Shown: piece by piece, positions 2,949-45,912 of the stretch
Numbering within the stretch: the stretch's first letter is position 1
Layout: every line of letters begins with the position of its first letter
DNA from: a virus
Virus record (IMG/VR): IMGVR_UViG_3300046049_000005
Location: 1-64,000 of that record
Length of the DNA stretch: 64,000 bases
Reading direction: 5' to 3' (one strand)
The notes under the pieces: model-generated
What the model was told of the DNA's origin: nothing
The model's database searches: none
What the model saw: the letters and a program-made list of their open reading frames with translations, nothing else
Translations under genes and position numbers: made by a program

Positions 2949-3289
2949 AGCAGCAGGGAGTAAGCACACACGCGCGAGGCTCGCTTCGCTCCGCGACTCG
3001 CTTCGCTCGTCGCTTACCGCGACCGCTCCGCGAAGGGACCACCACCTTATCGAGATGGAACACAGGGGGGAACCCTTTGAAGGAATAAACACAGAGGGGG
3101 TTTCCCGAGGAGAATTTTTCCACCAGACTTACCCCGGAATCTATCCCAGTTAGCGGCAAATATTGTCGGAGCCGAAACCCAATTTTCAGTCTGTGAGAGT
3201 CGAAAAATCTATGTCTCTCAGTAATCCCTATTCTCCGATTTTGCCGATACAGACTCTCTATCGGCAGAAATCAGCAGCGCAGCGGGAAG

Positions 3290-4502: not shown

Positions 4503-5549
4503 ATGGCTATCGACTTCGCAACTCCGACCGCCGAACGTAGTAACGACAGCAACAGCAACGACGACGGTAGCGAGGCGTCTTTCGACGCGAATGAGTTGGC
4601 GGAGCTTTACATCGAAGCTTCGGAGTACGCCGCAACGCTCGCTGAAATGCGAGAGGCCAACGACATCGGGTGGCCTTCGATGGAGAGTGACCCTTCGATG
4701 GAGCAGTATTCGGACCTTCGGAGTCGTCACGAAGACAGCCACATCGCAAAGCGCCTCACCGTTTTCGCGGTTTGCGCGAAGGGCGAGCTTGGTGAGGAGC
4801 AGAACCACGTTAACGACCATTCCATCTCCGATTACGAAGAGTCGTATCCGGAGCTTCCCAGAACCACCTGGAGTGGTCTAAACGACGACGAGAAGGAGAT
4901 GCTTCGTGACGAAGGCATCGACCTCGAAGAGCTTGGCTTCGATGACGACTTCGATGGGCCGAAGCTTCTCGAAGTCGATGGCGAGCGACTGCCCCTCGGT
5001 CTTGAAGAGGGCGATGTGGAAAAGGCGGAGCGCATCTTCGGTAAGCTTCCCACCGAGCCTTCCGCCGCTACCGAAGATGGCTTCCGCGAGTCTTCCGACC
5101 CCGCCGTTTTCGGTGACGCCGATTCCAGCGAGGAAAGCACCGATAAGGTGGTGGATGATGACAGCGAAGACGACGCCGAGGCTGTCGAAGACAGCGAGGC
5201 GGAGGATGAGCCGGAGCTGGACCTTGCCGAGAATCCCGCCGCCGTTACCGAGGCCAACGCTCTGTACGTTCGAAGCGCCGTGACTGACATCACTTCGAAG
5301 CGTACCCTTCAGCGGATGAAGCGGGTCGAAGAGACGAACGACAACCGGAGCAGCGTTATCGGTCGCATCGAAGAGCGGCTTAACGCTTCGGATGTTGGCA
5401 ACGCCGCAGATACCGTTGACGGTGACAGCGACAGCGACAACAGCGACGACCGCAGCCTTAACGAGACTGAGATGAATCTCGCCACCACCCTTATCGAGAA
5501 CGACATCGTTGATAACCTCGATGAGGCCAAGGCGGAAATTCTCGGCTAA
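4503..5549 (+). CDS. hypothetical highly acidic protein
   Basis: Long D/E-rich ORF. The ORF track starts at a GTG at 4464; the first ATG (MAIDFATP) is at 4503. C-terminal LNETEMNLATTLIENDIV parallels the C-terminus of 694..1404. Confidence 0.75.
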   Translation: MAIDFATPTAERSNDSNSNDDGSEASFDANELAELYIEASEYAATLAEMREANDIGWPSMESDPSMEQYSDLRSRHEDSHIAKRLTVFAVCAKGELGEEQNHVNDHSISDYEESYPELPRTTWSGLNDDEKEMLRDEGIDLEELGFDDDFDGPKLLEVDGERLPLGLEEGDVEKAERIFGKLPTEPSAATEDGFRESSDPAVFGDADSSEESTDKVVDDDSEDDAEAVEDSEAEDEPELDLAENPAAVTEANALYVRSAVTDITSKRTLQRMKRVEETNDNRSSVIGRIEERLNASDVGNAADTVDGDSDSDNSDDRSLNETEMNLATTLIENDIVDNLDEAKAEILG

Positions 5550-7006: not shown

Positions 7007-7080
7007 TGTTCCTAATCGAAGAAAAGACTTAACTCGCTTCGCGTTAATTGTTAAATAGGGGCGAAACCCCGAAAGGGGTC

Positions 7081-15003: not shown

Positions 15004-15027
15004 CTTGCCGGAGGTTAATTGTTTGGT

Positions 15028-15996
15028 ATGACCTATTCTCGAAAAGAGTGTACGGAAGCACTACAAGAAGCAACAGAATTGCTTGGCAAATCGCCAACCC
15101 AAGATGAATATATCAATCTTGATATTTCCCCATCTCACACTACGATTAGTCGTATCTTTGGCTCTTGGAACAAAGCCAAGGAAGCCGCTGACCTTGAAAC
15201 AATCAACCGAAGAGAATACAGTAAACAAGAATGTATTGATTCGCTCCGCCGTGCGGCAGAACTGCTTGGAAAGTCACCGAGCCATGACCGATTCAATGAG
15301 TTAGACTTGAAGCCGTCTGCTAATCATATCAATGATGTTTTTGATTCGTGGGCCAATGCCAAAGAAGAGGCGGGCCTTCAACGAGGAGATATAAAGCCAG
15401 TAAATACTGAATTTTTCCGCAAACCTCTCACCAATGAGGCCGCTTACTGGCTTGGAATGCTATGGGGAGATGGTGGTATCACTAAAAGGGGGGAAGAGAA
15501 GTATGAAATGTCTTTCGGCCTTTCTGAAAAGGACGCTGGTCACGTTCGAGCTTTTAAAAATGCTATCGAAAGTGAACACTCTCTTGTGAATAGCGGTGGA
15601 AACGAATGTGTAAGAATTTATATCTCTCGGGGCGATTTCCTTCAACCTCTCCTTGATTATGGCTTCAAGCCGGGAAAGACTACTTCAAGTTCCTTGCCCC
15701 CACTCAGCGAACCGAGCAAACGGCGTGATTTCATCCGCGGTCTAAACGATGCTGATGGGTATGTCGAGAAGACTGGAGTTCAAATTGCTGGTGTATCTAA
15801 AAAGCGGTTTGAAAAGCTCGAAAATTGGATACCATACAAAACATCAATCTACAAATACTGCCGAGAAGACCGACAAAACATCTTCACTCTCGTTACAATG
15901 AGCAGTGACTACGAAGAAGTGATAAACTGGATGTACCCCAACGGCCACGATACAAGCCCCGCCCTTGCTCGAAAACTCCAAGCGGCGCTCGACTAA
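15028..15996 (+). CDS. free-standing LAGLIDADG homing endonuclease with two N-terminal homing-endonuclease-associated repeats
   Basis: Tandem repeats ...KECTEALQEATELLGKSPTQDEY...IFGSWNKAKEAA and ...KQECIDSLRRAAELLGKSPSHDRF...VFDSWANAKEEA. LAGLIDADG motifs YWLGMLWGDGG and FIRGLNDADGYV. Clearly lower GC than the flanks. Confidence 0.8.
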   Translation: MTYSRKECTEALQEATELLGKSPTQDEYINLDISPSHTTISRIFGSWNKAKEAADLETINRREYSKQECIDSLRRAAELLGKSPSHDRFNELDLKPSANHINDVFDSWANAKEEAGLQRGDIKPVNTEFFRKPLTNEAAYWLGMLWGDGGITKRGEEKYEMSFGLSEKDAGHVRAFKNAIESEHSLVNSGGNECVRIYISRGDFLQPLLDYGFKPGKTTSSSLPPLSEPSKRRDFIRGLNDADGYVEKTGVQIAGVSKKRFEKLENWIPYKTSIYKYCREDRQNIFTLVTMSSDYEEVINWMYPNGHDTSPALARKLQAALD

Positions 15997-16121: not shown

Positions 16122-17426
16122 ATGACACGACGTAGTTCGACTTCCCCGACAGCAGTACAGACTTTCGCCGGACTGACCAATCACAACAACACCGAGATGG
16201 GAGACGCGGCGGCTTCCATCGCCGGACTCGATGCCGACGACCCCCCCGAAACCTCGCTGGCAACCGCTATTCGGAACCTCGAACAGGCCGAACAGGGCGG
16301 GCTGGCGTGGAAGCTTCCCGACAACATCGGTGACAGACTGAACATCGGAGAAATTAATGATGTTCTCCCCGATGGGGCTGAAGCCACCCGCGCTGGAATT
16401 GGGTCCGTCTACGTCGAGACTGACCGCTTCCAGTCCGTGTATTCCCCCGATAAGCTCCGCAGGTGGCTCAACGCCGATGATGACACCGATAAGGTGGAAG
16501 ATGCCTTGTGGAATGTCCCAACTTCCACCTATTCTATCATTAACCCTCTGACGGCATACGAGCCGTTAGAGGAGGCCATTCGTGACGAGGGCTACGGTGA
16601 CACCATCTTCGGTGAGATTCGAGAATACAAGGGCGGCGGAGAGGTCCACATGGACGTTCTCTTCGACGCTTTCCAGATAGACTACAACGATGACAGCAAC
16701 GGTAGCGAACCCATCGTTCTCGGTATCAGGACTGGATACGACTTTCTTTCGAGTCAGGCATTGTATTACGAAGGGTTTGCCCAGGACCGAGCGTGCAGTA
16801 ACAGCATCCGCTCGATTACCGAGAAGAAAACGATACGTCACGTCGGAGATGTTGACCTCGAAGATGAGGTCGAAGACGTGCTGGAGGAGATGGAGCTGAT
16901 GACGAATCGGCTGGCCGAGCTTATCGAGTTGGCCGAAGACATCGAAGTCGATATGCTCGACACCGAGTTCTCCGAGCCGTTCGACCACAACGACAACATT
17001 CAGGCCTTCTATGAGCTGTCGGGCTTCCCGAGCTATATGGCTTCGGCGGCGGCGAGCCATGCACGACAGCGGGCCGACAACCAGTTCATGCCTGATATGA
17101 CCGCCCTTTGGGATGGGGCAACCTACGCTCTCACCCACACTTATTCGGGTGGCGAGAACACCACGACTGCCGAGGGCTACATCGAAGCCGCGAACGATAT
17201 GGTCATGAACCCTTCGAGGGTCCTCGGAGAGGTGAACCGCGAACACCAGCGCCGCGTTATCGGTGCGAACCCCGATGATGAAGACGCTCTTAGCAGTTCC
17301 TCTGCCCACGCTGAGATTGAGGAGTTAGAATCTACGGTAAAGGAGAAGGCTGACGAGTTCGAGTCACGCAACGAGGAACTTCGGCAGAGCCTCCTTGCCA
17401 GCGCCGAAGGTGACGGCGATGATTGA
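16122..17426 (+). CDS. hypothetical protein, possibly DUF932-like
   Basis: 434-aa acidic ORF. The segment GIRTGYDFLSSQALYYEGFAQDRACSNSI resembles, from memory, the conserved core of the phage/plasmid DUF932 family. Weak assignment. Confidence 0.6.
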   Translation: MTRRSSTSPTAVQTFAGLTNHNNTEMGDAAASIAGLDADDPPETSLATAIRNLEQAEQGGLAWKLPDNIGDRLNIGEINDVLPDGAEATRAGIGSVYVETDRFQSVYSPDKLRRWLNADDDTDKVEDALWNVPTSTYSIINPLTAYEPLEEAIRDEGYGDTIFGEIREYKGGGEVHMDVLFDAFQIDYNDDSNGSEPIVLGIRTGYDFLSSQALYYEGFAQDRACSNSIRSITEKKTIRHVGDVDLEDEVEDVLEEMELMTNRLAELIELAEDIEVDMLDTEFSEPFDHNDNIQAFYELSGFPSYMASAAASHARQRADNQFMPDMTALWDGATYALTHTYSGGENTTTAEGYIEAANDMVMNPSRVLGEVNREHQRRVIGANPDDEDALSSSSAHAEIEELESTVKEKADEFESRNEELRQSLLASAEGDGDD

Positions 17427-20440: not shown

Positions 20441-20514
20441 GGCGTCCGAAATCAGCCGGAACGCTCACATCGAAGGGATTGGGACTGAGGTGGCGCATCC
20501 TCGGTTCGCGCACC

Positions 20515-21537
20515 ATGCAACCCAACAACAATCTCGAACCCATCGGACCCGAAGAAGCATTAGAAAAATACCTCCAGCATCGGGAGAACGAAGGCGTCTC
20601 AGAGAAAACACTACAATCCCACCGCTACCGACTTCAGCATTTCGTGAAGTGGTGCCTCGATAACGGGCTGGACTCTCTCCACCACTTATCGAGACGAGAT
20701 TTTCAGGACTTCCGGCATTGGCGAAAACAAGATGGGGGGTTGAACAACGTGACATGGCATACGCAGATGACAACGCTTCGAGTCTTCGTGAAGTGGGCCG
20801 AAAGCTACGAAGCAATCGAACACGGCCTTCACGAAAAGATACGGATTCCGAAGCTCGACCCCAACGAAGACGCTCGGGACACCAAGTTCAGTCAAGAACG
20901 AGCAAGCGCCATTCTCGAACATCTCTCAGAGTTCGAATACGCGAGTCAGCAACACACGCTGTTCGCTCTACTATGGCATACAGGGATGCGAATAGGGTCG
21001 GCGCGAGCAATCGACCTTAGAGACATCCATATGGACGAGCAGTACGTCGAGATTCATCACCGACCCCAATCGGACACACCGTTGAAGAACAAGTCTAACG
21101 GCGAACGTCCCATCTCTCTCGCCCTTCCCGAGGTGGAGCTTCTGAGGGACTACATCGATAAGCGCCGGCCTTCGGTGACAGACGAATACGGTCGGAAACC
21201 GCTGTTCGCAACAGAGAACGGACGGGCGCACCGGAATACGATGCGAAGCTGGGTCTACAAGCTGGCCCGCCCCTGTGAATACAGCGGAGACTGTCCCCAC
21301 GGAAGGAACATAGAAGAGTGCGAAGCGGCGAGGCTCAGCGACAAAGCAAGCAAATGCCCCTCGTCGTTCTCGCCGCACACCATCAGGCGTTCCTCGATTA
21401 CGCAATGGCTTTCCGAAGACGTGCCGAGCGAAGCCGTGAGTGACAGGATGAACGCCAACGAAGAGGCTATCGACAAGCACTACGACAAACGCACCGAGAA
21501 GGGCAAGATGGAGCAACGCAAAGACTACTTCTTGTAA
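20515..21537 (+). CDS. int: tyrosine recombinase/integrase
   Basis: N-terminal core-binding-like region (TLQSHRYRLQHFVKW). Catalytic-domain signatures TGMRIGSARAI (Arg), SPHTIRRSS (H-x-x-R) and IDKHYDKR (Tyr). ATG at 20515. Confidence 0.85.
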   Translation: MQPNNNLEPIGPEEALEKYLQHRENEGVSEKTLQSHRYRLQHFVKWCLDNGLDSLHHLSRRDFQDFRHWRKQDGGLNNVTWHTQMTTLRVFVKWAESYEAIEHGLHEKIRIPKLDPNEDARDTKFSQERASAILEHLSEFEYASQQHTLFALLWHTGMRIGSARAIDLRDIHMDEQYVEIHHRPQSDTPLKNKSNGERPISLALPEVELLRDYIDKRRPSVTDEYGRKPLFATENGRAHRNTMRSWVYKLARPCEYSGDCPHGRNIEECEAARLSDKASKCPSSFSPHTIRRSSITQWLSEDVPSEAVSDRMNANEEAIDKHYDKRTEKGKMEQRKDYFL

Positions 21538-21553: not shown

Positions 21554-22039
21554 TCACCCCTCCGAAGTTAACATCGCTCGCAACCAGGAAGAAAGAGCAT
21601 CGAAGGCGATTTGCTGACAACGTTCTCTGCTTCCAGCGTAGCGGAAGTTCACGTTGTAGTACCTCTCCCACTTCTCGACAGTGGAGGAAATGACATTCCA
21701 TGATACGTCTCGGTACTGCATGAACCCCTCCCGACGTTTGAACGTCCGTCGAGGCGCCTCTATGAGAACTAATAGTTCGGAGTCCCAGGATTGGGCGCGT
21801 TTGACTTCGCGCTTGAATCGCTCTCGACTCCGAGTAATGCTGTCGATGAAGTCGTCACCACCTTTCCTCTCTACGGCATATCGAGGGTGATAGGTGTCGT
21901 TCTCTCCATCGTGGTCGCAGAACTCGACAAGGGTATAGTCGCCCGTATTGATGGTTACATCCCGAATCTCAACGTCGAAGTCATCGAACGCCCAGGGCCG
22001 CTGTTCCCGAGTATCGCGAAGGATGTTGAGTCGAACCAT
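21554..22039 (-). CDS. ERCC4 (XPF/Mus81/Hef)-type nuclease domain protein
   Basis: ILRDTREQRPW ... TGDYTL ... YAVERKGGDDFIDSI...R matches the ERCC4 signature D-x-R-E ... GDY ... ERK-x(3)-D. Confidence 0.7.
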   Translation of the reverse strand: MVRLNILRDTREQRPWAFDDFDVEIRDVTINTGDYTLVEFCDHDGENDTYHPRYAVERKGGDDFIDSITRSRERFKREVKRAQSWDSELLVLIEAPRRTFKRREGFMQYRDVSWNVISSTVEKWERYYNVNFRYAGSRERCQQIAFDALSSWLRAMLTSEG

Positions 22040-22599
22040 CAGCCGAAGAACTCCCCGACGAGGTGGGGCTTCACAACGGTCATCAAATCTTCCAAGTCTA
22101 TTCTCTTCGTGTCATCAGTATCAAGAATTGCCCGAACTTTCTCGATGGCAGAAATTTGGTCAGCTCGGTCGAGTTCAAGAGACTCACCGACGCTAACAAA
22201 CATTTCGTCACCGGCAGCTTCCGGGTGAGGATAATATCGACTCCCTTCAGAAACATCATCATTAGCCACTAATACACAGATGGCAAAAATAATAGAGTCA
22301 ACGTTAATCCCAACATCTTTTACCTTGATTTCATCTAAGAGGCTTCTCCCCCGAGACTTCTGGTAATCGGTTAACTCGACCGAAGAAGCAATTGAATCGT
22401 AGCGATGAAGATTATCCTGACGCCTGACCTTTTCTTTATTCTCTTCTTCTGGCCCATACCACATCCCAGTATTGTAAGCACGAAACCTCTGAAACTGCTG
22501 ATACTTATGGCTCGGAGCGTCAGAAGGATGAATCTTAGTTGCGTTATCGGTATCGCTGGTAATTACTTCAGGCGGTTCTTTTTCTTGAATGTGTTCCAT
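22039..22599 (-). CDS. hypothetical protein
   Basis: 186-aa ORF co-oriented and overlapping with the nuclease gene. Lower GC. Confidence 0.6.
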   Translation of the reverse strand: MEHIQEKEPPEVITSDTDNATKIHPSDAPSHKYQQFQRFRAYNTGMWYGPEEENKEKVRRQDNLHRYDSIASSVELTDYQKSRGRSLLDEIKVKDVGINVDSIIFAICVLVANDDVSEGSRYYPHPEAAGDEMFVSVGESLELDRADQISAIEKVRAILDTDDTKRIDLEDLMTVVKPHLVGEFFG

Positions 22600-22671
22600 T
22601 GATACATTAGAGTTACAGACAAGTCTCCTCTCTACTGTTATACTATATACTACTAACTCTGCGGAGTTAAC

Positions 22672-22842
22672 CTCGATAAGGTGGCGGGACTTTCACTGTG
22701 TTAACGTTCAGTAATCAACTGATACCTCAGGTACTAACAGCATGGTACCGACTATGTAGAGTGGACCTTAGCGGTTAACACCGTGAGGGATAAGTATATC
22801 ACTGAGGGTTAACGCGGTGAGGGTCCACACCACCTTATCGAG
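22672..22842. repeat. inverted pair of the shared intergenic module (copies 2 and 3)
   Basis: 22672-22726 (direct) and 22787-22842 (inverted) are both homologous to 2734-2788. Each arm ends in CTCGATAAGGTGG or its reverse complement. They sit in the divergent region between 22599(-) and 23130(+). Confidence 0.85.
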
Positions 22843-22961
22843 GTAGACCCTGTAGAGTACGTACCGTTCTTAGTATAAACTATAGTAGAGAAAGGTACTT
22901 GCCTTCATTTAACATATGAACCGCCAAAGACTTAAAACTTTCGGTTTTAAGTCTATAGACT

Positions 22962-23071
22962 CGTCCATTAGGCGGCAACCTCCGCGGTTCCTTCGTAGCG
23001 ACCCACGACCTGTCGCCACAGCCGGCACGCCGATGCCCGTAGACATCGGCTCCCGTTAACGGAGCGTACTT
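22962..23071 (-). ncRNA. structured small RNA, paralog 1
   Basis: The reverse complement aligns over ~109 nt with 44299-44410. Shared parts: AAGTACGC start, GCGTGCC, loop AGGTCGTGG, AATGGACG end. Stems 23029-23050 and 22996-23018 covary with the other copy. A CTTAAG box lies ~25 nt upstream on the minus strand. Confidence 0.55.
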
Positions 23072-23129
23072 ATTGGAGTAAAGAGCGTGAAGCACTTAAG
23101 ACTTTCGGAGTTAAGACTTTAGAATAGCA

Positions 23130-23681
23130 ATGCAACCAAAAAACCTACAAACTCAAGGCGAAAAGGCACCTGATGTGGACGACACAGACATCGCCCACCT
23201 CGCAGGTGTCATTGACGCGATAGGAACGGTTACGGTTCGCGTCACAAAGAACGAGCGGTACAGTATCGGGTATCAATACTCAGCAGTAGTGCAAATCAGC
23301 AGACCAGCGAACGCTGACGACCCCCTTCTCGGGAAGTTGTTGGCGTATTGTGATGAATACGGAGCAAAGTACAAGCTTACAGAGGAATCTGACGACGACG
23401 GTAAGGGGGAAAGCTACCGATGGGCCTGTAACAGTCCAGATAGCATCGAGCGTTTCCTCGAACCAATGCTTCCGTATCTTGTCACTGAGTACGAAAGTTC
23501 GGTGATTATGATAGAGCAAATTCTTCCGAGAATAGAGGACGGCCTTCACACCGAAAAGCAGGGGTTGTACGAACTAATGGAGTTTGCAGATATGGTTCGG
23601 GAGACGAACCCCCGACGAAGGAGTCCAGAACTGAAATACGACCAGGACTACTTTGCCGAAGCGTGGTCAGTTGCCGAGTAG
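23130..23681 (+). CDS. LAGLIDADG-like protein with a degenerate motif
   Basis: DIAHLAGVIDAIGTVTV resembles a LAGLIDADG motif, but the second acidic residue is Ile. 183 aa. Confidence 0.55.
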   Translation: MQPKNLQTQGEKAPDVDDTDIAHLAGVIDAIGTVTVRVTKNERYSIGYQYSAVVQISRPANADDPLLGKLLAYCDEYGAKYKLTEESDDDGKGESYRWACNSPDSIERFLEPMLPYLVTEYESSVIMIEQILPRIEDGLHTEKQGLYELMEFADMVRETNPRRRSPELKYDQDYFAEAWSVAE

Positions 23682-32754: not shown

Positions 32755-33393
32755 ATGTCTTATTCTTGTCCCGATTGTGATAGAGAACTACCAACAGAGC
32801 GGGGAAGAGACTCACACCGCTCTCAGGTCCATGACTGGACTCGGATGGTAGAAGTTACTTGCGAGTGGTGTGGTGATAAATTCGAACGGAAACGCTCTAT
32901 TGAAGAAAATTCAGACCAAACCTTTTGTTCTCAGGAGTGTCACGGAAAGTTCATATCTGAACATAAGAGCGGTGAGAACTCCCCTGCATGGGAAGGAGGA
33001 CCATCAAACTTTGAGTGCGAAGTTTGTGGTTCTACGTTCGAAAAATATGAGTCAAATACAAGCAAAAGTATCTACTGTTCTCGGGACTGCCAAGTAGAGG
33101 CCAGAGACTTCCCTACTGGAGAAGACCATCCAAGCTGGAACCCTGACCGTGAGTGGTGGCCTTACTACGGACCAAACTGGTCTGAACAGCGAGAGAAAGC
33201 CCGAGAGCGCGATGGCCGTTGTCAGGTGTGTGGAATCCCATCCTGGGCTTATCGCTGTCTACATGGACAGGCTCTCGATGTTCACCACGTCACCCCGTTC
33301 GAAGAGTACGATGACCATGAAGAAGCAAACAAACTCTCGAACCTGATGCCGCTTTGCGCTTCGTGTCATAATACGGTTGAAAGGGGATTTTAG
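32755..33393 (+). CDS. HNH endonuclease with N-terminal zinc ribbons
   Basis: CQVCG...HHVTP...NLMPLCASCHN (HNH core). Upstream CPDCD...H...H, CEWCG...CSQEC and CEVCG...CSRDC repeats. AT-richer than neighbours. Confidence 0.8.
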   Translation: MSYSCPDCDRELPTERGRDSHRSQVHDWTRMVEVTCEWCGDKFERKRSIEENSDQTFCSQECHGKFISEHKSGENSPAWEGGPSNFECEVCGSTFEKYESNTSKSIYCSRDCQVEARDFPTGEDHPSWNPDREWWPYYGPNWSEQREKARERDGRCQVCGIPSWAYRCLHGQALDVHHVTPFEEYDDHEEANKLSNLMPLCASCHNTVERGF

Positions 33394-39086: not shown

Positions 39087-39216
39087 GTGCGGTAACTGGG
39101 AGTACGGAGAAGAGCCTCGGAAATGCCCGCTCTGTGGTACTGAAGCCCGTGAAGAACAGCCCCGTTACGGTACGACCATCTCGATTACCTGTGATGGCTG
39201 GAGTGATATAGAATAA
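39073..39216 (+). CDS. small rubredoxin-like zinc-ribbon protein (47 aa)
   Basis: MVIYKCGNWEYGEEPRKCPLCGTEAREEQ... The last base of its stop is the first base of the polB ATG. Confidence 0.45.
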   Translation: MVIYKCGNWEYGEEPRKCPLCGTEAREEQPRYGTTISITCDGWSDIE

Positions 39217-42200
39217 TGTCAGAAAAACTATATGTGACGACAGTAGAGTCGCTGTATCCGGGCGAGACAAACTTTGACTCTGTTGTCGTCAGACTGTACG
39301 GACGGAACGCGGAGCGCGAACCACTCAGAGTGACTGTCCGGGGGTTCTCGCCGTACTTCCTCACTACCGAGGACCAAACCGATAAGGTGCAGCCGGCAGA
39401 CCACCAGGACCTTATCGAGTACGAATCCGTGGATACCATTCCGCTCTCCGAACGCTTTGACGACGAACCCTCTGACTTGGTGAAGGTCAACGTCAAATAT
39501 CCACATTCGGTGCCGCGACTCCGCGAAGAGTTCGACAAGACCTGGGGTGCTGACACCCTCTTCACCGAACGTTTTCGGATTGACCACGGCATCAAGAGCG
39601 GTGTAGAGGTTCCCACCGATAATCGGCGGGGGAATCACATCATCGTAGACAAAGACCATATTTCTCCTGTGGAGATTACCGATGTGGAACCAAGGGTGAT
39701 GACCCTCGACATCGAGACGGACGACCGTGGTTCAGGGTTCCCCGACCCCGGCGAGGCTCGGATTCTGAGCATTGCCGTCCACGACAGCTACGACGATGAA
39801 TACACGGTCTTTCTCGACCGCGACCGCGAGGATTTCGAGTCGTTCTTCGACCTGTCTCCCGTTCAGCGTGCGAAACTCGCCAACGACGACGAAGAGTTCG
39901 GGCTTGCCGACCTCGGCATCGACCAACCCGACGCGCTGAAGCACTCCCCAACCGAAAAGACCATGCTCGACCTTTTCGGGCTGTTCGTTCGGGAGAAAAA
40001 TCCAGATTTACTGACAGGATGGAATTGCGGTGACAGCAGCAATGATGGCTTCGACCTGCCCCACATCATCAAACGTATGAAGCGTGTCGGAGCCAAAGCC
40101 TCGCGCCTTTCACGAGAGTCTGAGGTAGAGATTGACGACTACAACGACCAATTCAAACCCAACATCGCGGGTCGCGCTCTCTACGACCTTATGGATGGCT
40201 GGGGCGATACGAAGTTCACTGAACCGCGCTCCTACGCTCTTGACGATGTTGCTGAAGATGCGCTCGATGATACCAAAATCGAGCATCAGGAGCAGGGGTA
40301 CTATGAGATGTACCGCGACAATCCTGTCAAATTTATTAATTACAACGTCAAAGACACCCGCCTCACCGTGGAAATCAACGAGGAAGAAGGCGTTCTGAAG
40401 TTCAAGCGTAGACTAAAGGACATCGTTGGCGTGGACTGGAGACGGACGCACGAGAACAACGAGTTCATCGAGATGGCCGTGCGTCGGAAGTGCCGAGAAA
40501 ATGGTCTTGCGATGATTACAGCCTACGACAACCCCCACGTCGGGGGCGATACCGATGAAGTAAACTACGAAGGGGCCTACGTTTTTCCTTCTTTCTCGGG
40601 ACGTAAGGAGAACGTCGTCGGCATCGATTTGGAGTCTCTATATCCTCGGACTCAGCAGATGCTCAATGTCAGTCCCGATGCCCGTATCGAAAAAGAGCGT
40701 GCAGAGCGAGAAGGGATACCGCACGTAGTTGCCGAAAACGGACAGACGTTCCGTACTGACCACGACGGAATTGTCCGTGAATTGGTTGACGACTATATGG
40801 TCCTGAAGCAGGAGTTCAAGGAAGAGCGCAATCAGGCAGAACCGGGTAGTGATAGGAGAGAGAAGTTGGCCGAATCCTATAATGTCACTAAAACGATAGT
40901 TAACTCGATATACGGTTATTCGGGGTGGAACCGTTCTCCGCTCTACAATCCACACGACGCCGCCGCTGTCACCCTTACCGGTCAGGCCGTTATCAAGAGA
41001 ACCGCGGAGTATGTCGATGAAGAAACCGAAGGAAGTGTGGCATATGGCGATTCTGTCCCTGACTTCGAGCCGGTGTACGTCCGAGTCGATGGTGACGTAG
41101 ATATACGACCTATCGAGTCTGTGCACGATAGTCTCGAACCGGGAGAGTTTGAGGTGTGGGCTGACGGTGGTTGGACTACCTGTAACGATGTGATTCGAAA
41201 GCCCAACAGGAAACAAATGTACCGTGTCAGAACAGATAACGGACTCGTCCATGTTACTGAAGACCACGGGTTAGTCCGAGATGATGGAACTGAAGTACCC
41301 CCTACGGATGTTGAACCCGGCGACCATCTATTACATACATCGCTTCAATCTGCTACCGGGGACACCAGCAACATCTCTCTCGATAAGGCGTGGCTCTATG
41401 GACTGCTCGTGGCAGACGGAACTGCAATAGGGTCACAGTTTAAAATCTGCAAAAATGATGTCGGGCTTTTGGAGAGAGCCGCGACAGCGTTAGACATCTG
41501 CTTCGGGTTCGATACAGAAATTTGTGACTACCGCGAATCGAGCGGCACCAAGCAACTTCGTGGCGGAGATAATGAATACGGTGCCGTCTCAGAGCTGGTG
41601 AGCGAACTCGAACCGAAGCTATACACTCCTGACGGGAAGAAAAGAGTTCCAAAGTCCGTGTTGAATGGGTCGTCGTGGGTGATGAAGGCGTTCCTCGATG
41701 GCTACCAAGCCGGCGACGGTGACGGAGATGAGAGATACGAAAAGAGGTTCCACCGCTCCTACACAAACAGCCACACTCTTGGTGCTGGCCTTACATACAT
41801 TCTCGACCGTCTTGGACAGGATGCCGGCGTCAATGTTCGAGATAATCACGGGAAGGAATATCCCCGGATTCATTCTCGGGAAGATGCTGGCTGTCGAACA
41901 GAAGTGCTTGAGGTTGAACCGATAGACTACGAAGGAGAGTACGTCTACGACCTCTCAACTGATTCGGAACACTTCAATGCAGGAATTGGACGAATCACAG
42001 TCCACAACACAGATAGCGTCTACTGTAAGTGGCCTGACGATTGGGGACAGATAAAGACTCTCGAAACCGTAGAGGAACATTGCGAACATCTAAACAATTC
42101 TATCTATCCTCAATTGTGTGAAAAGTACGGAATCGACCCCGAGGACAATAAGTGGCGCATGGAGCTTGAGAAGTTAGGAATGATGTTTATGGCCGGGGGG

Positions 42201-42269
42201 AAGAAGCGATACGCAAGCTCGGTTAGGTGGTCCGAGGGGATGCCCTTCAATGAGGTGTTGGTAGAATGA
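39216..42269 (+). CDS. polB: family-B DNA polymerase, N-terminal ORF (exonuclease and palm/fingers, includes an intein)
   Basis: Exo I MTLDIETD, Exo II GWNCGDSSNDGFDLPH, Exo III YNVKDTRL. Motif A GIDLESLYP, motif B KTIVNSIYGYSG. Motif C YGD|TDS is interrupted by the intein. KKRYA follows the intein. Confidence 0.9.
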   Translation: MSEKLYVTTVESLYPGETNFDSVVVRLYGRNAEREPLRVTVRGFSPYFLTTEDQTDKVQPADHQDLIEYESVDTIPLSERFDDEPSDLVKVNVKYPHSVPRLREEFDKTWGADTLFTERFRIDHGIKSGVEVPTDNRRGNHIIVDKDHISPVEITDVEPRVMTLDIETDDRGSGFPDPGEARILSIAVHDSYDDEYTVFLDRDREDFESFFDLSPVQRAKLANDDEEFGLADLGIDQPDALKHSPTEKTMLDLFGLFVREKNPDLLTGWNCGDSSNDGFDLPHIIKRMKRVGAKASRLSRESEVEIDDYNDQFKPNIAGRALYDLMDGWGDTKFTEPRSYALDDVAEDALDDTKIEHQEQGYYEMYRDNPVKFINYNVKDTRLTVEINEEEGVLKFKRRLKDIVGVDWRRTHENNEFIEMAVRRKCRENGLAMITAYDNPHVGGDTDEVNYEGAYVFPSFSGRKENVVGIDLESLYPRTQQMLNVSPDARIEKERAEREGIPHVVAENGQTFRTDHDGIVRELVDDYMVLKQEFKEERNQAEPGSDRREKLAESYNVTKTIVNSIYGYSGWNRSPLYNPHDAAAVTLTGQAVIKRTAEYVDEETEGSVAYGDSVPDFEPVYVRVDGDVDIRPIESVHDSLEPGEFEVWADGGWTTCNDVIRKPNRKQMYRVRTDNGLVHVTEDHGLVRDDGTEVPPTDVEPGDHLLHTSLQSATGDTSNISLDKAWLYGLLVADGTAIGSQFKICKNDVGLLERAATALDICFGFDTEICDYRESSGTKQLRGGDNEYGAVSELVSELEPKLYTPDGKKRVPKSVLNGSSWVMKAFLDGYQAGDGDGDERYEKRFHRSYTNSHTLGAGLTYILDRLGQDAGVNVRDNHGKEYPRIHSREDAGCRTEVLEVEPIDYEGEYVYDLSTDSEHFNAGIGRITVHNTDSVYCKWPDDWGQIKTLETVEEHCEHLNNSIYPQLCEKYGIDPEDNKWRMELEKLGMMFMAGGKKRYASSVRWSEGMPFNEVLVE
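41052..42008 (+). mobile_element. intein (319 aa) with a LAGLIDADG homing endonuclease, inserted in polymerase motif C
   Basis: The host sequence reads ...VAYGD / SVPDF...ITVHN / TDSVY... It starts with Ser and ends with His-Asn, with +1 Thr restoring YGDTDS. Internal LAGLIDADG blocks LYGLLVADGT and FLDGYQAGDG. Confidence 0.85.
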
Positions 42270-42898
42270 GCCAAACAATGAAGGTGACAGAAGCGGAGCG
42301 CCGCGACGACGTAGACATCGGCCACGTCGATATAGTGGGATTCGACTGTGTGAAGTCTAACTTCAGTATTTTGACAAAAGAGACGCAAGAGAAGGTCTTA
42401 GAGCAAATTGTTCGTGGAGCCGACAAAGAGGACATCGTTGAGACTGTTCACGATGCAGCGTCCTCTATTGACCCTAAGAATCCAGACTGGGACCGCCTCG
42501 GCATCCCGCAGGGTCTTGGGCAGAAAATTGACCCCGATAAGGCGCATATGGATGGCTACTACTCCTGGTCTTCGAGCGGGAACCATCCGAGGGGTGAAGC
42601 GCCGAGAGCAGCGTGGTTTGCCAACCACCTTCTCGATGTAGAATTTTCAAAAGGAGACAAACCCAAACGTGTCAAGGTCTGTGGCGGAAAGAGGGTGAAG
42701 GGAGAGGCGGTTGATGTAATCGCCTTCAATGATGCCACCGACCTTATCGATGTAGACCTCGACATTGACCCCTCCGAGACGCAGCGCAAGTGCCTCAGGA
42801 ATCCTTTGGATGACATCCTCGAAGCGTTCAACATCGAAACCGAGAGCGCCTTGAGGGGAGAATGTCAGAGTCAGAGCGATTTAGAGCAGTTCCTATGA
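42266..42898 (+). CDS. polB: family-B DNA polymerase, C-terminal (thumb) ORF
   Basis: IVGFDCVKSNFSILTKETQEKVLEQIV corresponds to the conserved RGLE-VRRDWS-IAKETQ-VLE block that follows KxY in archaeal PolB. Its ATG overlaps the stop of 39216..42269 (ATGA). Confidence 0.75.
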   Translation: MSQTMKVTEAERRDDVDIGHVDIVGFDCVKSNFSILTKETQEKVLEQIVRGADKEDIVETVHDAASSIDPKNPDWDRLGIPQGLGQKIDPDKAHMDGYYSWSSSGNHPRGEAPRAAWFANHLLDVEFSKGDKPKRVKVCGGKRVKGEAVDVIAFNDATDLIDVDLDIDPSETQRKCLRNPLDDILEAFNIETESALRGECQSQSDLEQFL

Positions 42899-44262: not shown

Positions 44263-44265
44263 CGT

Positions 44266-44274
44266 AAGACTTAA
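44266..44274 (+). promoter_or_regulatory. AAGACTTAA promoter-like box upstream of small-RNA paralog 2
   Basis: TAAGACTTAAC. The conserved AAGTACGC begins 24 nt after CTTAAC, the same spacing as in paralog 1. Confidence 0.45.
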
Positions 44275-44298
44275 CTTGTCGGGACTCTTTCTTTGTAG

Positions 44299-44410
44299 TA
44301 AGTACGCCCCGCTAACGGAAGCGACTGTCCATAGGTGGCAGTTGCGTGCCGAACCCCTCTTAGGTCGTGGAAGAGGGGATAGGAGCCGGGGGTTCTCCAC
44401 AATGGACGTT
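44299..44410 (+). ncRNA. structured small RNA, paralog 2
   Basis: AAGTACGCCCCGCTAACGGAAGC... Hairpins at 44321-44345 (GCGACTG/CAGTTGC) and 44354-44378 (CCCCTCTT-AGGTCGTGG-AAGAGGGG). Ends in AATGGACG. Homologous to 22962-23071(-). Confidence 0.55.
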
Positions 44411-44545
44411 AGTATAACTTTATAATTATAGTTATACTGTTTACTCTGTACTGTTTACTCTACAACGTTAACTCTGCTATGTTAACACCGATAAGGTGGT
44501 GGGACAATGAACTACTGTTAGGTCTGTTGACCATGTTGTAGAGTT

Positions 44546-44602
44546 AAAAAAAAGACCCCGATAGGGTAGAGGTATAGTACCTCTCCCTACCGGGGCGATT
44601 TT
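44546..44602. terminator. bidirectional terminator-like hairpin between the convergent gene arms
   Basis: A8 run (44546-44553), an imperfect ~15-bp hairpin at 44556-44595 (CCCCGATAGGGTAGAGG-tatagta-CCTCTCCCTACCGGGG), then TTTT (44599-44602). This gives a T-run after the stem on either strand. Confidence 0.5.
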
Positions 44603-44659: not shown

Positions 44660-44797
44660 ATGGACATCGGCCCACGACAAGCGGCCTTCATCAAGTCAGA
44701 GATGAAGAAGATAGAAGAAAAAGAGTCGCGTCAGCCAACCGCGAAGGTTGAAGCTGAACGCATCCGAGAACAAGCAGAGAGATTTCTCACCGAGTAA
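44660..44797 (+). CDS. possible small protein (45 aa)
   Basis: MDIGPRQAAFIKSEMKKIEEKESRQPTAKVEAERIREQAERFLTE. Isolated ORF with weak support. Confidence 0.3.
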   Translation: MDIGPRQAAFIKSEMKKIEEKESRQPTAKVEAERIREQAERFLTE

Positions 44798-45222: not shown

Positions 45223-45912
45223 CTAACCCTGCTTGAACCGAATCTGGTCGTGGTACGACTGCGTATAGGTTTCTGAATCCCCATCGGCGTCGTGGAATAT
45301 TGCAAAATTCTCGATTCCATCAGCGCCGTTTTCAAGAGCGAATTGACTTTTCTCAGATATAACGGTCCCGTCTGCCGCTTTCAGCATGACGTGAGCATAA
45401 TTAGTGTAGTCGATATTTTTGATGACTACTTGATGCCAGCCTTTGCCCAAGGGGTCGTATCCGGTGTTGTGGGTGTCTGTATAATTACTGAAGACGAGGT
45501 TGTTGTTACTATCTCTGTAAGTAACATCCATTAAAGAGTCCTGCTTTTGGTCGTATAACAACTTGACTCCGTAGTCAAAGTACCAGTCGTCTTTGGTCTT
45601 GAACCACCACGACACCTTTACCGGGGTTTGTTTGTGGTCCTGTAAATCGTAGACGTATCTGGACGAGTATTTGTCTTTGTTCTTCGTGAAGAGCGCGTTT
45701 TGCCCTTCGTATCCTCCCCCAAGCTCAGCTTCGAGGTCAGTATTTCCGTCTTGGTACCAGTCCTGAAGTGGATTGTCTTCTTCGAAACCAATGTAGGGGT
45801 GCCATTCCCAAACAAGCTCTCCGTCGATAGTGACCTTCTGTATTTCGTTCCCATCGACAGAGATGTTTCTAGGAACTTCTCCATCAACTGTGAGGTCGTG
45901 GCTGTGGACCAT
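45223..45912 (-). CDS. hypothetical tail-fibre-associated protein
   Basis: 229 aa, Asn/Tyr/Trp-rich, low GC, immediately downstream of the fibre gene. Function is positional only. Confidence 0.6.
   Translation of the reverse strand: MVHSHDLTVDGEVPRNISVDGNEIQKVTIDGELVWEWHPYIGFEEDNPLQDWYQDGNTDLEAELGGGYEGQNALFTKNKDKYSSRYVYDLQDHKQTPVKVSWWFKTKDDWYFDYGVKLLYDQKQDSLMDVTYRDSNNNLVFSNYTDTHNTGYDPLGKGWHQVVIKNIDYTNYAHVMLKAADGTVISEKSQFALENGADGIENFAIFHDADGDSETYTQSYHDQIRFKQG

Follow-up and report, generated by a model that had tools for sequence, protein, structure and literature searches.

We analyzed a 64,000-nt stretch of viral DNA (positions 1 to 64,000 of IMG/VR record IMGVR_UViG_3300046049_000005; "the window" below means this whole stretch) and found that it carries two copies of a compact structured element, copy 1 on the minus strand at 22960-23073 and copy 2 on the plus strand at 44298-44410. 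The element represents a previously undescribed family among virus-encoded structured small RNAs. Its comparative support is unusually clean for its size, with one hairpin in which all eight pairs have changed on both sides, a defined promoter, and two paralogs in one genome, and its sequence features make each copy a candidate for an independent transcript of ~110 nt. As to function, we tentatively favor, at somewhat less than an even chance, the explanation that the two loci are genes for a folded non-coding RNA that stands alone, acts in trans and is recognized through an invariant unpaired surface.

A first-pass annotation of the window had reported two alignable, paralogous copies in these places. 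Pairwise alignment confirmed that both stretches are present there and that they are ~60% identical, and all four of the blocks that had been described as shared (AAGTACGC, GCGTGCC, AGGTCGTGG and AATGGACG) occur in both. The span from AAGTACGC to AATGGACG measures 110 nt in copy 1 (23071..22962, minus strand) and 109 nt in copy 2 (44300..44408, plus strand); the full elements, delimited by model alignment and supported by model matches and pair counts, measure 114 and 113 nt, respectively. We also built a covariance model, R1, from copy 2 and its ortholog on contig L125, leaving copy 1 out and supplying only two hairpins (P2 and P3) as structure. When the 64 kb window was searched with R1, copy 1 was matched at 67 bits (E = 1e-13) with all P2 and P3 pairs canonical, and no further matches were found, so the paralogy holds both by alignment and by model.

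Additional members were collected from related uncultured virus contigs. An exact-pattern scan of IMG/VR with the 5' pattern AAGTACGCNCCGNTAACGG yielded L125, and protein searches with the RNA ligase that adjoins copy 2 and the phrog_12649 protein that adjoins copy 1, followed by the contigs encoding the closest matches, gave most of the others; a related-locus search with the phrog_12649 protein alone produced no matches. The RNA-ligase/contig route supplied L135, L137 and L139, which are of the copy-2 type, as is L125. L144, L146, L148, L152 and L153 are of the copy-1 type, and a motif/pattern scan added L162 (copy-1 type) and L170 (copy-2 type). Orthologs of both types were matched by R1. 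With the two window copies, these 11 make a family of 13 distinct sequences, 108-118 nt long, that fall into two classes (52-65% identity between classes, 69-98% within). Two paralogs on one contig were seen only for the window, and more members than these 13 probably exist.

Base pairs were counted on the alignment of the 13 sequences (A5), which was made by a model containing P2 and P3. P3 (8 bp) is 100% paired, with eight of eight pairs changed on both sides, and P2 (9 bp) is 96.6% paired, with six pairs changed on both sides. A further helix, P3a, which was proposed by RNAalifold and is not part of R1, encloses P3; in it, GUGCY pairs with GGARC across a G.A mismatch. P3a is likewise 100% paired, and its six one-sided changes are all compatible, none violating the helix. 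Over all counted helices, 98.5% of cells are paired, compared to 75.7% in column shuffles, and 14 of the 21 pairs show changes on both sides. The covariation score of 0.717 (0.277 in shuffles) was reached by none of 500 shuffles, and sliding the 3' partners by one to three columns lowered pairing to 35-60%. Independent changes within a clade were seen in L153 (GCGGUAAUC/GGUUACUGC), in L170 (GCGACCAUC/GGUGGUUGC, with a UUCG loop) and in P3 of L148 (GUGGCAUC/GGUGUCAC). We conclude that P2 and P3 are established and that P3a is probably formed as well.

The first-pass annotation had proposed three covarying helices, two of which stand. Both P2 (GCCGAUGUC/GGCAUCGGC versus GCGACUGUC/GGCAGUUGC in the two copies) and P3 (GUGGCGAC/GUCGCUAC versus CCCCUCUU/AAGAGGGG) were confirmed and could be extended, and their compensatory pattern was kept in the additional homologs. 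The remaining proposal, a local hairpin near the 5' end (GCTCCG-ttaa-CGGGAGC versus GCCCCG-ctaa-CGGAAGC), failed: it is uncompensated, with two C.A mismatches in copy 2, only CCG/CGG is kept family-wide, and the adjacent pair is unpaired in 5 of the 13 sequences. P3a and a long-range closing helix, in which a 5' CYCC pairs with GGRG beyond P3a, fit the family better. The four core pairs of this closing helix form in 13 of 13 sequences, and one position covaries (C-G five times, U-A five times and U.G once among 11 distinct rows). The statistics for so short a helix are weak, since there are only four core pairs and the covariation score was reached by 25 of 500 shuffles, and we regard the closing helix as probable. 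With it, the RNA becomes a three-way junction: no linker separates P2 from P3a, and the junction strand of 8-10 nt (..AACGGRAG) does not vary.

In copy 2 (plus strand), the two closing strands lie at 44307-44311 (CCCC(G)) and 44387-44391 (CGGGG), and the junction strand J1/2 (CUAACGGAAG) at 44312-44321. P2 is formed by 44321-44329 with 44337-44345, P3a by GUGCC (44346-44350) with GGAGC (44382-44386), and P3 by 44354-44361 with 44371-44378 around the loop AGGUCGUGG (44362-44370); the conserved AAUGGACG occupies 44401-44408. The corresponding parts of copy 1 (minus strand) are CUCCG at 23060-23064 and CGGAG at 22980-22984, J1/2 (UUAACGGGAG) at 23050-23059, P2 at 23042-23050 with 23029-23037, the P3a strands GUGCC at 23024-23028 and GGAAC at 22987-22991, P3 at 23012-23019 with 22995-23002, its loop at 23003-23011, and AAUGGACG at 22962-22969. 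Four other tertiary or terminal interactions were considered and dropped. Pairing of the 3' AAUGGACG with the P2 loop is contradicted by the change of GGAC to GGUC or GGCC while GUCC stays unchanged, and a terminal 5'/3' stem proposed by RNAalifold (CGCY/GG.CG) is broken in two to four sequences. The internal loop between P3a and P3 has no tandem G.A and thus does not make a kink-turn, and by inspection the changes in the P2 and P3 loops are uncompensated, which speaks against a kissing interaction.

The structure is strand-specific. In all 13 sequences the sense strand has a lower minimum free energy (MFE) than the antisense strand, by a mean of 10.6 kcal/mol. The sense strand also keeps one U.G pair of P2 without exception and has several G.U pairs at other places. 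Pair counts and MFE over the 13 sequences therefore uphold the earlier description of a strand-specific structured RNA with compensatory changes. They also bear on the suggestion that the loci are a DNA-level repeat, such as a protein-binding or recombination site with hairpins acting in DNA, or else a pair of small protein genes. The loci do lie in regulatory DNA beside an integrase/nuclease module, and open reading frames (ORFs) of 71 and 88 codons overlap them. However, the sense-strand U.G and G.U pairs would become A.C on the other strand, which folds less well throughout, and a promoter stands at initiation distance in the matching orientation (see below). As for coding, KYAPLT is common to both copies at the 5' end and AAUGGACG is read N-G-R in one copy and M-D-V in the other. 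No reading frame is kept end to end: the conserved ends lie in different frames between the copies, and lengths in the family differ by non-multiples of three. Neither overlapping ORF had a match in PHROGs. We consider a DNA-level or protein-coding role most improbable, with the coding version largely refuted; the earlier preference for RNA genes over proteins stands, and the six-frame ORFs overlapping both RNA copies should not be annotated as genes.

The signals around the two copies have to be judged by the kind of virus that carries them. The large ORFs of the window are those of a tailed archaeal virus, including a family B DNA polymerase with an intein, baseplate J, a tail sheath, an RNA ligase, an ERCC4-type nuclease and HNH endonucleases. 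The tail sheath shares 49-53% identity with its counterparts in the haloarchaeal myoviruses HRTV-7, HSTV-2 and HF1/HF2, reaching 53% for HRTV-7/HSTV-2. By these sequence comparisons, the window comes from an uncultured haloarchaeal myovirus of salt lakes, a relative of Hafunaviridae (HSTV-2, HRTV-7 and HF2), and its signals are therefore to be read as archaeal, with promoters consisting of a B recognition element (BRE) and a TATA box and with leaderless mRNAs.

The first-pass annotation had noted a CTTAA(C/G) box 23-24 nt upstream of the element and a shared CTCTTT, and we saw both in both copies. Judged by its sequence and setting, the CTTAA box is the TATA box of the BRE/TATA promoter type that is standard in this virus. 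The putative promoter of copy 2 (plus strand) comprises a BRE-like CGTAAG at 44263-44268 and the TATA box ACTTAACT at 44269-44276, with a predicted start at ~44295-44300. That of copy 1 (minus strand) comprises an alpha-like motif CTAAAGTCTTAAC at 23110-23122, the BRE CCGAAAG at 23102-23108 and the TATA box TCTTAAGT at 23094-23101. Between TATA box and predicted start, copy 2 has CTCTTT (44285..44290, plus strand; copy 1 counterpart at 23080-23085), which would be part of the promoter or initiator region. In both copies the TATA box begins 29-30 nt ahead of AAGUACGC, and the (C)G(T/A)AAGA-CTTAACT element also stands ahead of protein genes at 7028, 12975 and 14999 in the window.

The class I intergenic repeats of HF2, which contain the motifs alpha (CTAAAGACTTAGAA) and beta (TCTTTAAGTC), were all active as promoters in reporter assays, and in primer extension transcription began 26 nt past the first base of the TATA motif, the BRE lying at -33 to -37 (Russ, Pfeiffer & Dyall-Smith 2021, PMC8707807). 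Both window promoters resemble this class in spacing and motifs, having an alpha-like CTAAAG(A/T)CTTA, a CGAAA-type BRE and, ~26 nt ahead of the expected start, a TATA box of the (T)CTT(T)AAGT type; the HF2 gamma motif is not recognizable. By this analogy, both RNAs should start 2-7 nt upstream of AAGUACGC and be made by the host RNA polymerase. The earlier claim that each copy has its own promoter is supported by the BRE/TATA pair at initiation distance, by the recurrence of this type before window genes, and by its resemblance to the active HF2 repeats.

Directly after copy 1 lies a second, tandem promoter of class I type (TATAGACTTAA-AACCGAAAG-TTTTAAGTC; 22929..22957, minus strand). The same arrangement was present in all six copy-1-type members that were examined downstream (L162 was left out), with TATAGACTTAA-CGAAAG-TTTAAGTC and then ..GTGAGGGCAAGT directly following the RNA. 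HRTV-7 and HF2 (at IR1c) have an equivalent promoter with a GTGAGG start at the copy-1 position, without the RNA, and the second promoter is, judging from its sequence, their probable counterpart. Copy 1 shares with HF2 IR1c an equivalent intergenic position between the HNH gene and the phrog_12649/ERCC4 genes; HF2, HRTV-7 and HSTV-2, however, have a promoter with no RNA homolog behind it, whereas the window has an extra promoter-plus-RNA cassette upstream of its IR1c-like promoter. Since the IR1c-like promoter stands without an RNA in HRTV-7 and HF2, the cassette looks inserted upstream of an older promoter. A second promoter immediately after the copy-1-type RNA also argues that the RNA is its own unit and not the leader of the next gene.

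This last point bears on a competing explanation, in which the transcript reads on and the fold acts in cis on its own transcript, whether as a two-state switch responding to a ligand, an ion or temperature, as a stabilizer against 5' decay, or as a processing signal. Such an element would agree with the lack of a consistent oligo-T terminator after the RNA and with the second partners available to every strand of the closing helix and P3a (CYCCG/CGGRAG, GUGC/5' GYAC and GGARC/YYCC), a pattern that a two-state RNA should show; the conserved nucleotides of junction and loop would fit a ligand pocket too. Riboswitch aptamers built on three-way junctions likewise have covarying helices around invariant junction and loop nucleotides, with alternative pairings possible. 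Yet the downstream context is not constant: copy-1-type RNAs are followed by another promoter and, 250-360 nt on, by the phrog_12649/ERCC4 genes, and copy-2-type RNAs by repeats, a strong bidirectional terminator and a 45-codon ORF. In addition, the alternative pairings are less well kept (88.5% for P0, the pairing of GUGC with 5' GYAC, and 80.8% for the P1-local extension, vs. 100% for P3a), there is no evident expression platform, and no Rfam riboswitch model matched. Conservation is aptamer-like, but the element differs from riboswitches in having its own promoter and no constant gene behind it, and we consider a cis-acting role unlikely.

Our preference for an RNA that acts in trans derives from the pattern of conservation. 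Nearly all invariant nucleotides lie outside the covarying helices (AACGGRAG, GUGCYG, AGGUCG..GG in the P3 loop, AGGA, and GG.CG at the 3' end); a U.G and a C-G pair at the top of P2 are also invariant. With nearly all of these nucleotides unpaired or at the ends of helices, we infer a folded, trans-acting RNA that is recognized by a protein. This reading is preferred because the helices vary freely around fixed loops, because each RNA has its own promoter and in copy-1 loci is followed by the next one, and because paralogs with entirely different helix sequences retain identical unpaired nucleotides. According to this proposal, the host RNA polymerase would start just upstream of AAGUACGC as predicted above, and the RNA would fold as a three-way junction, possibly pseudoknotted, in which the closing helix CYCC/GGRG joins P2 and P3, with P3 lengthened by GUGCY/GGARC. 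The folded RNA would be bound in trans by a viral or host protein, as a component of a ribonucleoprotein or as a decoy. The helices would be free to drift and the recognition surface would stay fixed, the two paralogs supplying one surface from two hubs, one at 22.6-23.1 kb, where divergent promoters lie, and one at 44.3 kb, where the replication module ends. The element offers a concrete handle on how regulatory hubs are organized in these viruses, and, in a domain of life with few such RNAs known, it is a candidate for a new system of the RNA-protein or RNA-sensor kind.

Several observations weigh against a free-standing, trans-acting RNA of this architecture. Conservation at the 3' end stops at AAUGGNCG plus two bases, and most members lack a run of at least four T after the element, so read-through downstream, or processing, is possible; promoter, start and 3' end of the RNA have all been placed by inference. 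Pfam searches with ~30 window ORFs revealed no evident RNA-binding partner except the RNA ligase, which is itself unlinked in L170. The 13 sequences form two clades, so many of the double changes are inherited rather than independent, and the alignment leans towards P2 and P3, both of which the aligning model contained. Finally, GGARC/GGAR can pair instead with a downstream YYCC to form a hairpin, P4 (10 of 13 sequences by inspection, with one position occupied by A-U, G-C and G.U), and GUGC can enter P0. The RNA may therefore have alternative folds, or a pseudoknot, in its 5' and 3' parts.

The P3 loop had been described as a conserved 9-nt loop and suggested as a base-pairing determinant. 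It is indeed AGGUCGNGG in 11 of the 13 members, but it is not invariant, being AGGUCGUAUAGG in the other two. As the longest conserved single-stranded stretch, it could serve as the seed of a small RNA that pairs with viral or host mRNAs, and a sense-oriented complement, CCACGACCU, is found at codons 4-7 of the late gene 45223-45912 and in three relatives too. Against such a role, the seventh loop base is variable (U, C or A), two members carry a 3-nt insertion, and CCACGACCU is unchanged in viruses whose neighboring copy-2 loop is AGGUCGCGG, so loop and target do not co-vary; the conservation of CCACGACCU is explained by its coding for His-Asp-Leu. The 9-mer or its complement occurs just three more times in the window, and only the late-gene site has the complement in mRNA sense. 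The suggestion is left unsupported, given that the only sense complement in the window shows no co-variation, and we regard a base-pairing small RNA as improbable. The site itself, an exact complement of the P3 loop at 45893-45901 in a minus-strand mRNA that is kept in L135, L137 and L139, is probably coincidental.

The DNA around the RNAs raises the question of whether promoter, structured RNA, AT-rich palindromes and iteron-like repeats together form an origin module, in which the RNA would open or prime the DNA. Origins of this kind include the R-loop origins oriF and oriG of T4 and the RNA II system of ColE1. The copies lie in the lowest-GC kilobases of their neighborhoods (0.449 at 22-23 kb and 0.474 at 44-45 kb), and palindromes, tandem direct repeats and a GATAAGGTGG element occur downstream of both. 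Moreover, the region after the copy-2-type RNA in L125, L135 and L137 resembles the stretch behind window copy 1, implying that the whole module was the duplicated unit. The turn in GC skew at 44 kb, on the other hand, coincides with a switch of coding strand and is uninformative alone, composition being confounded by the coding strand, and HF2 has a repeat-rich bidirectional promoter region without the RNA. An origin-associated transcript therefore strikes us as very unlikely. We attach slightly more weight, though still little, to a bistable or pseudoknotted RNA that either senses an ion, a ligand or temperature or serves a duplicated origin module (promoter, RNA, AT-rich palindromes, iterons and GATAAGGTGG) as its structured primer or R-loop transcript; a sensor or an origin primer would be the first for an archaeal virus.

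Comparison with known RNAs identified no relative. At gathering thresholds, Rfam 15 matched only two tRNAs in the whole window, and at E <= 10 both loci gave only chance matches (small nucleolar RNA, microRNA and trpB terminator-like), none over the element. Neither ARAGORN nor the Rfam tRNA model recognized it as a tRNA or tRNA-like structure. Self-cleaving ribozymes (hammerhead, twister, twister-sister, pistol, hatchet and hepatitis delta virus [HDV]-like) likewise gave no match in Rfam at E <= 10; the element does not contain the hammerhead core CUGANGA/GAAA, and by inspection its helix order (a, P2, P3a-P3-P3a', a') is nested, unlike the HDV double pseudoknot. We also considered the HEARO/omega RNA of IscB, for which one would look for a ~200-300 nt RNA beside an IscB gene of 400 or more residues with RuvC and HNH domains. 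RF02033 did not match, the neighboring HNH protein of copy 1 has only 183 residues (phrog_12980) and is divergently encoded, copy 2 has no HNH neighbor, and the phrog_12980-type HNH gene is present in HF2/HSTV-2 without the RNA.

Among phage-encoded RNAs, the pRNA of phi29 is ~120 nt long, is built on a three-way junction with conserved loops, and works as a folded RNA within a protein complex. The element resembles it in size and in its junction with conserved loops. By inspection, however, its P2 and P3 loops have no conserved mutual complementarity for a ring: the P2 loop varies freely (UACG, CAUAGGU, UCAAA, ACUG, ACCG, UUUG and UUCG) and the P3 loop does not change in step, so a phi29-type pRNA was rejected. 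There is also no Rfam match, the window virus is a relative of terminase-type myoviruses (HSTV-2 is annotated with small and large terminase subunits), and the window has two copies at internal regulatory hubs. T4 stable RNAs C and D, GOLLD, ROOL and HEARO are likewise virus-borne, structure-conserved RNAs that were found comparatively and whose function is unknown or only recently known; they are bacterial and most are far larger, and HEARO/omega RNA is tied to IscB. The present family differs in being archaeal-viral and ~110 nt long, and none of these RNAs matched it in Rfam. Full-text literature searches found no described structured or non-coding RNA of haloarchaeal viruses, and the HF2 promoter paper makes no mention of such an RNA (PMC8707807). 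The promoter half of the cassette thus belongs with the HF2-type class I repeats, and the RNA half has no known relative.

Every one of the 11 further members lies at one of the two window positions. The copy-1-type site is between a divergently transcribed HNH gene of 180-188 residues and the phrog_12649, ERCC4 nuclease and integrase genes; the HNH assignment comes from phrog_12980 in the window and, in the relatives, from an ORF of matching size and position. The copy-2-type site is at the end of the replication module, ahead of a bidirectional terminator and of a conserved small ORF that begins MDIGPRQ... in the window and MELGPRQ... in L170. A link between copy 2 and the RNA ligase was rejected, as the gene upstream of the RNA in L170 is ThyX and L155, which has RtcB and RNA ligase, has no RNA there; the ThyX neighbor indicates that the copy-2-type RNA goes with the position rather than with the ligase. 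L124 has the same flanking sequences but lacks, as one block, both the RNA and its promoter, and in L122/L141 (78% RNA-ligase identity) neither element nor promoter was found at the copy-2 site.

A broader model, R2, had no match in the whole HSTV-2 genome, in 13.5-69.8 kb of HF2, in the HRTV-7 region or in 41 kb of HGTV-1. The collection scans required exact patterns. A scan for GCGTGCC..AGGTCGTGG was unspecific (at least 120 chance loci, none of them real), a three-block pattern matched once, in a chance coding region, and the strict 5' pattern gave only chance matches (Komagataeibacter, soil contigs) in metagenome and GTDB genome collections, so that host genomes were not effectively searched by this exact-pattern scan. 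At the DNA level, blastn searches with both RNA loci in 50,697 phage records, and with copy 1 in PLSDB plasmids, returned nothing or chance matches of 24-33 nt. So far, by sequence, the element appears restricted to a subgroup of uncultured, Hafunaviridae-like haloarchaeal myoviruses.

Both RNAs are followed by repeats. A GATAAGGTGGTG element lies ~120 nt downstream of copy 1 (22828..22839, minus strand) and another ~80 nt downstream of copy 2 (44490-44501, plus strand), and both belong to a repeat-rich regulatory region that travels with the RNA. After copy 1 this region (22600-22960, both strands) contains repeats of the TAGTTTATACTA type, ATATACTTATCCCTCA, and GATAAGGTGGTG enclosed by a GGGTCTACC..GGTGTGGACCC hairpin. 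The copy-2-type RNAs of L125, L135 and L137 are followed by this region too, but most of it is deleted after window copy 2; in position it corresponds to the "complex bidirectional promoter region" of HF2 at 17022-17068. The 12-mer GATAAGGTGGTG occurs 8 times in the window (~0.01 expected), usually after (A/C)C(C/T)C or CTC, and the 8-mer GATAAGGT occurs 22 times over both strands (~2 expected), for example at 5142, 22675, 39381 and 44490 on the plus strand and at 3051, 6714, 22839, 31807, 36282, 39416 and 51322 on the minus strand. These sites lie inside and between genes, several of them as inverted pairs separated by 35-440 nt. Related contigs are enriched for the 8-mer as well, with 10 occurrences in 21 kb of L137 and 7 in L139; it was not found in the stretches of HSTV-2, HRTV-7 and HF2 that were examined; it is possibly a binding site for a viral protein.

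Directly after copy 2, a 9-bp inverted repeat (AGTATAACT...AGTTATACT around TTATAATTAT; 44411..44438, plus strand) is possibly, from its sequence, a 3' end or terminator hairpin or an operator/TATA-like element; at the equivalent site, orthologs have a different inverted repeat, around TTTATAA. Farther downstream, the rightward replication module and the small ORF 44660-44797 are separated by a strong hairpin at 44546-44602, which is bordered by A8 and, at its opposite side, by T4 (AAAAAAAAGACCCCGATAGGG...CCCTACCGGGGCGATTTT). This hairpin is conserved in L124, L122 and L170 and, by sequence, looks like a bidirectional terminator where two gene blocks converge.

Other features of the genome were observed in passing. 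In its aligned region, the RNA-ligase product is 100% identical to protein P0001 on a 72,679 bp metagenome contig from the Joint Genome Institute (JGI), and the only tRNAs found by ARAGORN and Rfam are tRNA-Asn (24515) and tRNA-Gln (25128). A tyrosine integrase gene is located beside the ERCC4 nuclease and phrog_12649 genes (window 20479-21537, plus strand, and 21554-22599, minus strand), an arrangement kept in all copy-1-type loci and also in HSTV-2, HRTV-7 and HF2. The family B polymerase is split into two ORFs of ~700 and ~210 residues (39216-42269 and 42266-42898, plus strand). The first of these is 1017 residues long in the window, where it contains an intein with a LAGLIDADG domain at residues ~658-931 that is missing from the relatives L137 and L139 (697-704 residues), and L141 has an HNH gene inserted between its two polymerase ORFs. 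Three homing-endonuclease-type genes on the plus strand of the window, encoding an HNH_repeat plus LAGLIDADG protein (15019-15996) and two HNH proteins (23130-23681 and 32755-33393), together with the polymerase intein, suggest heavy traffic of selfish elements in this genome.

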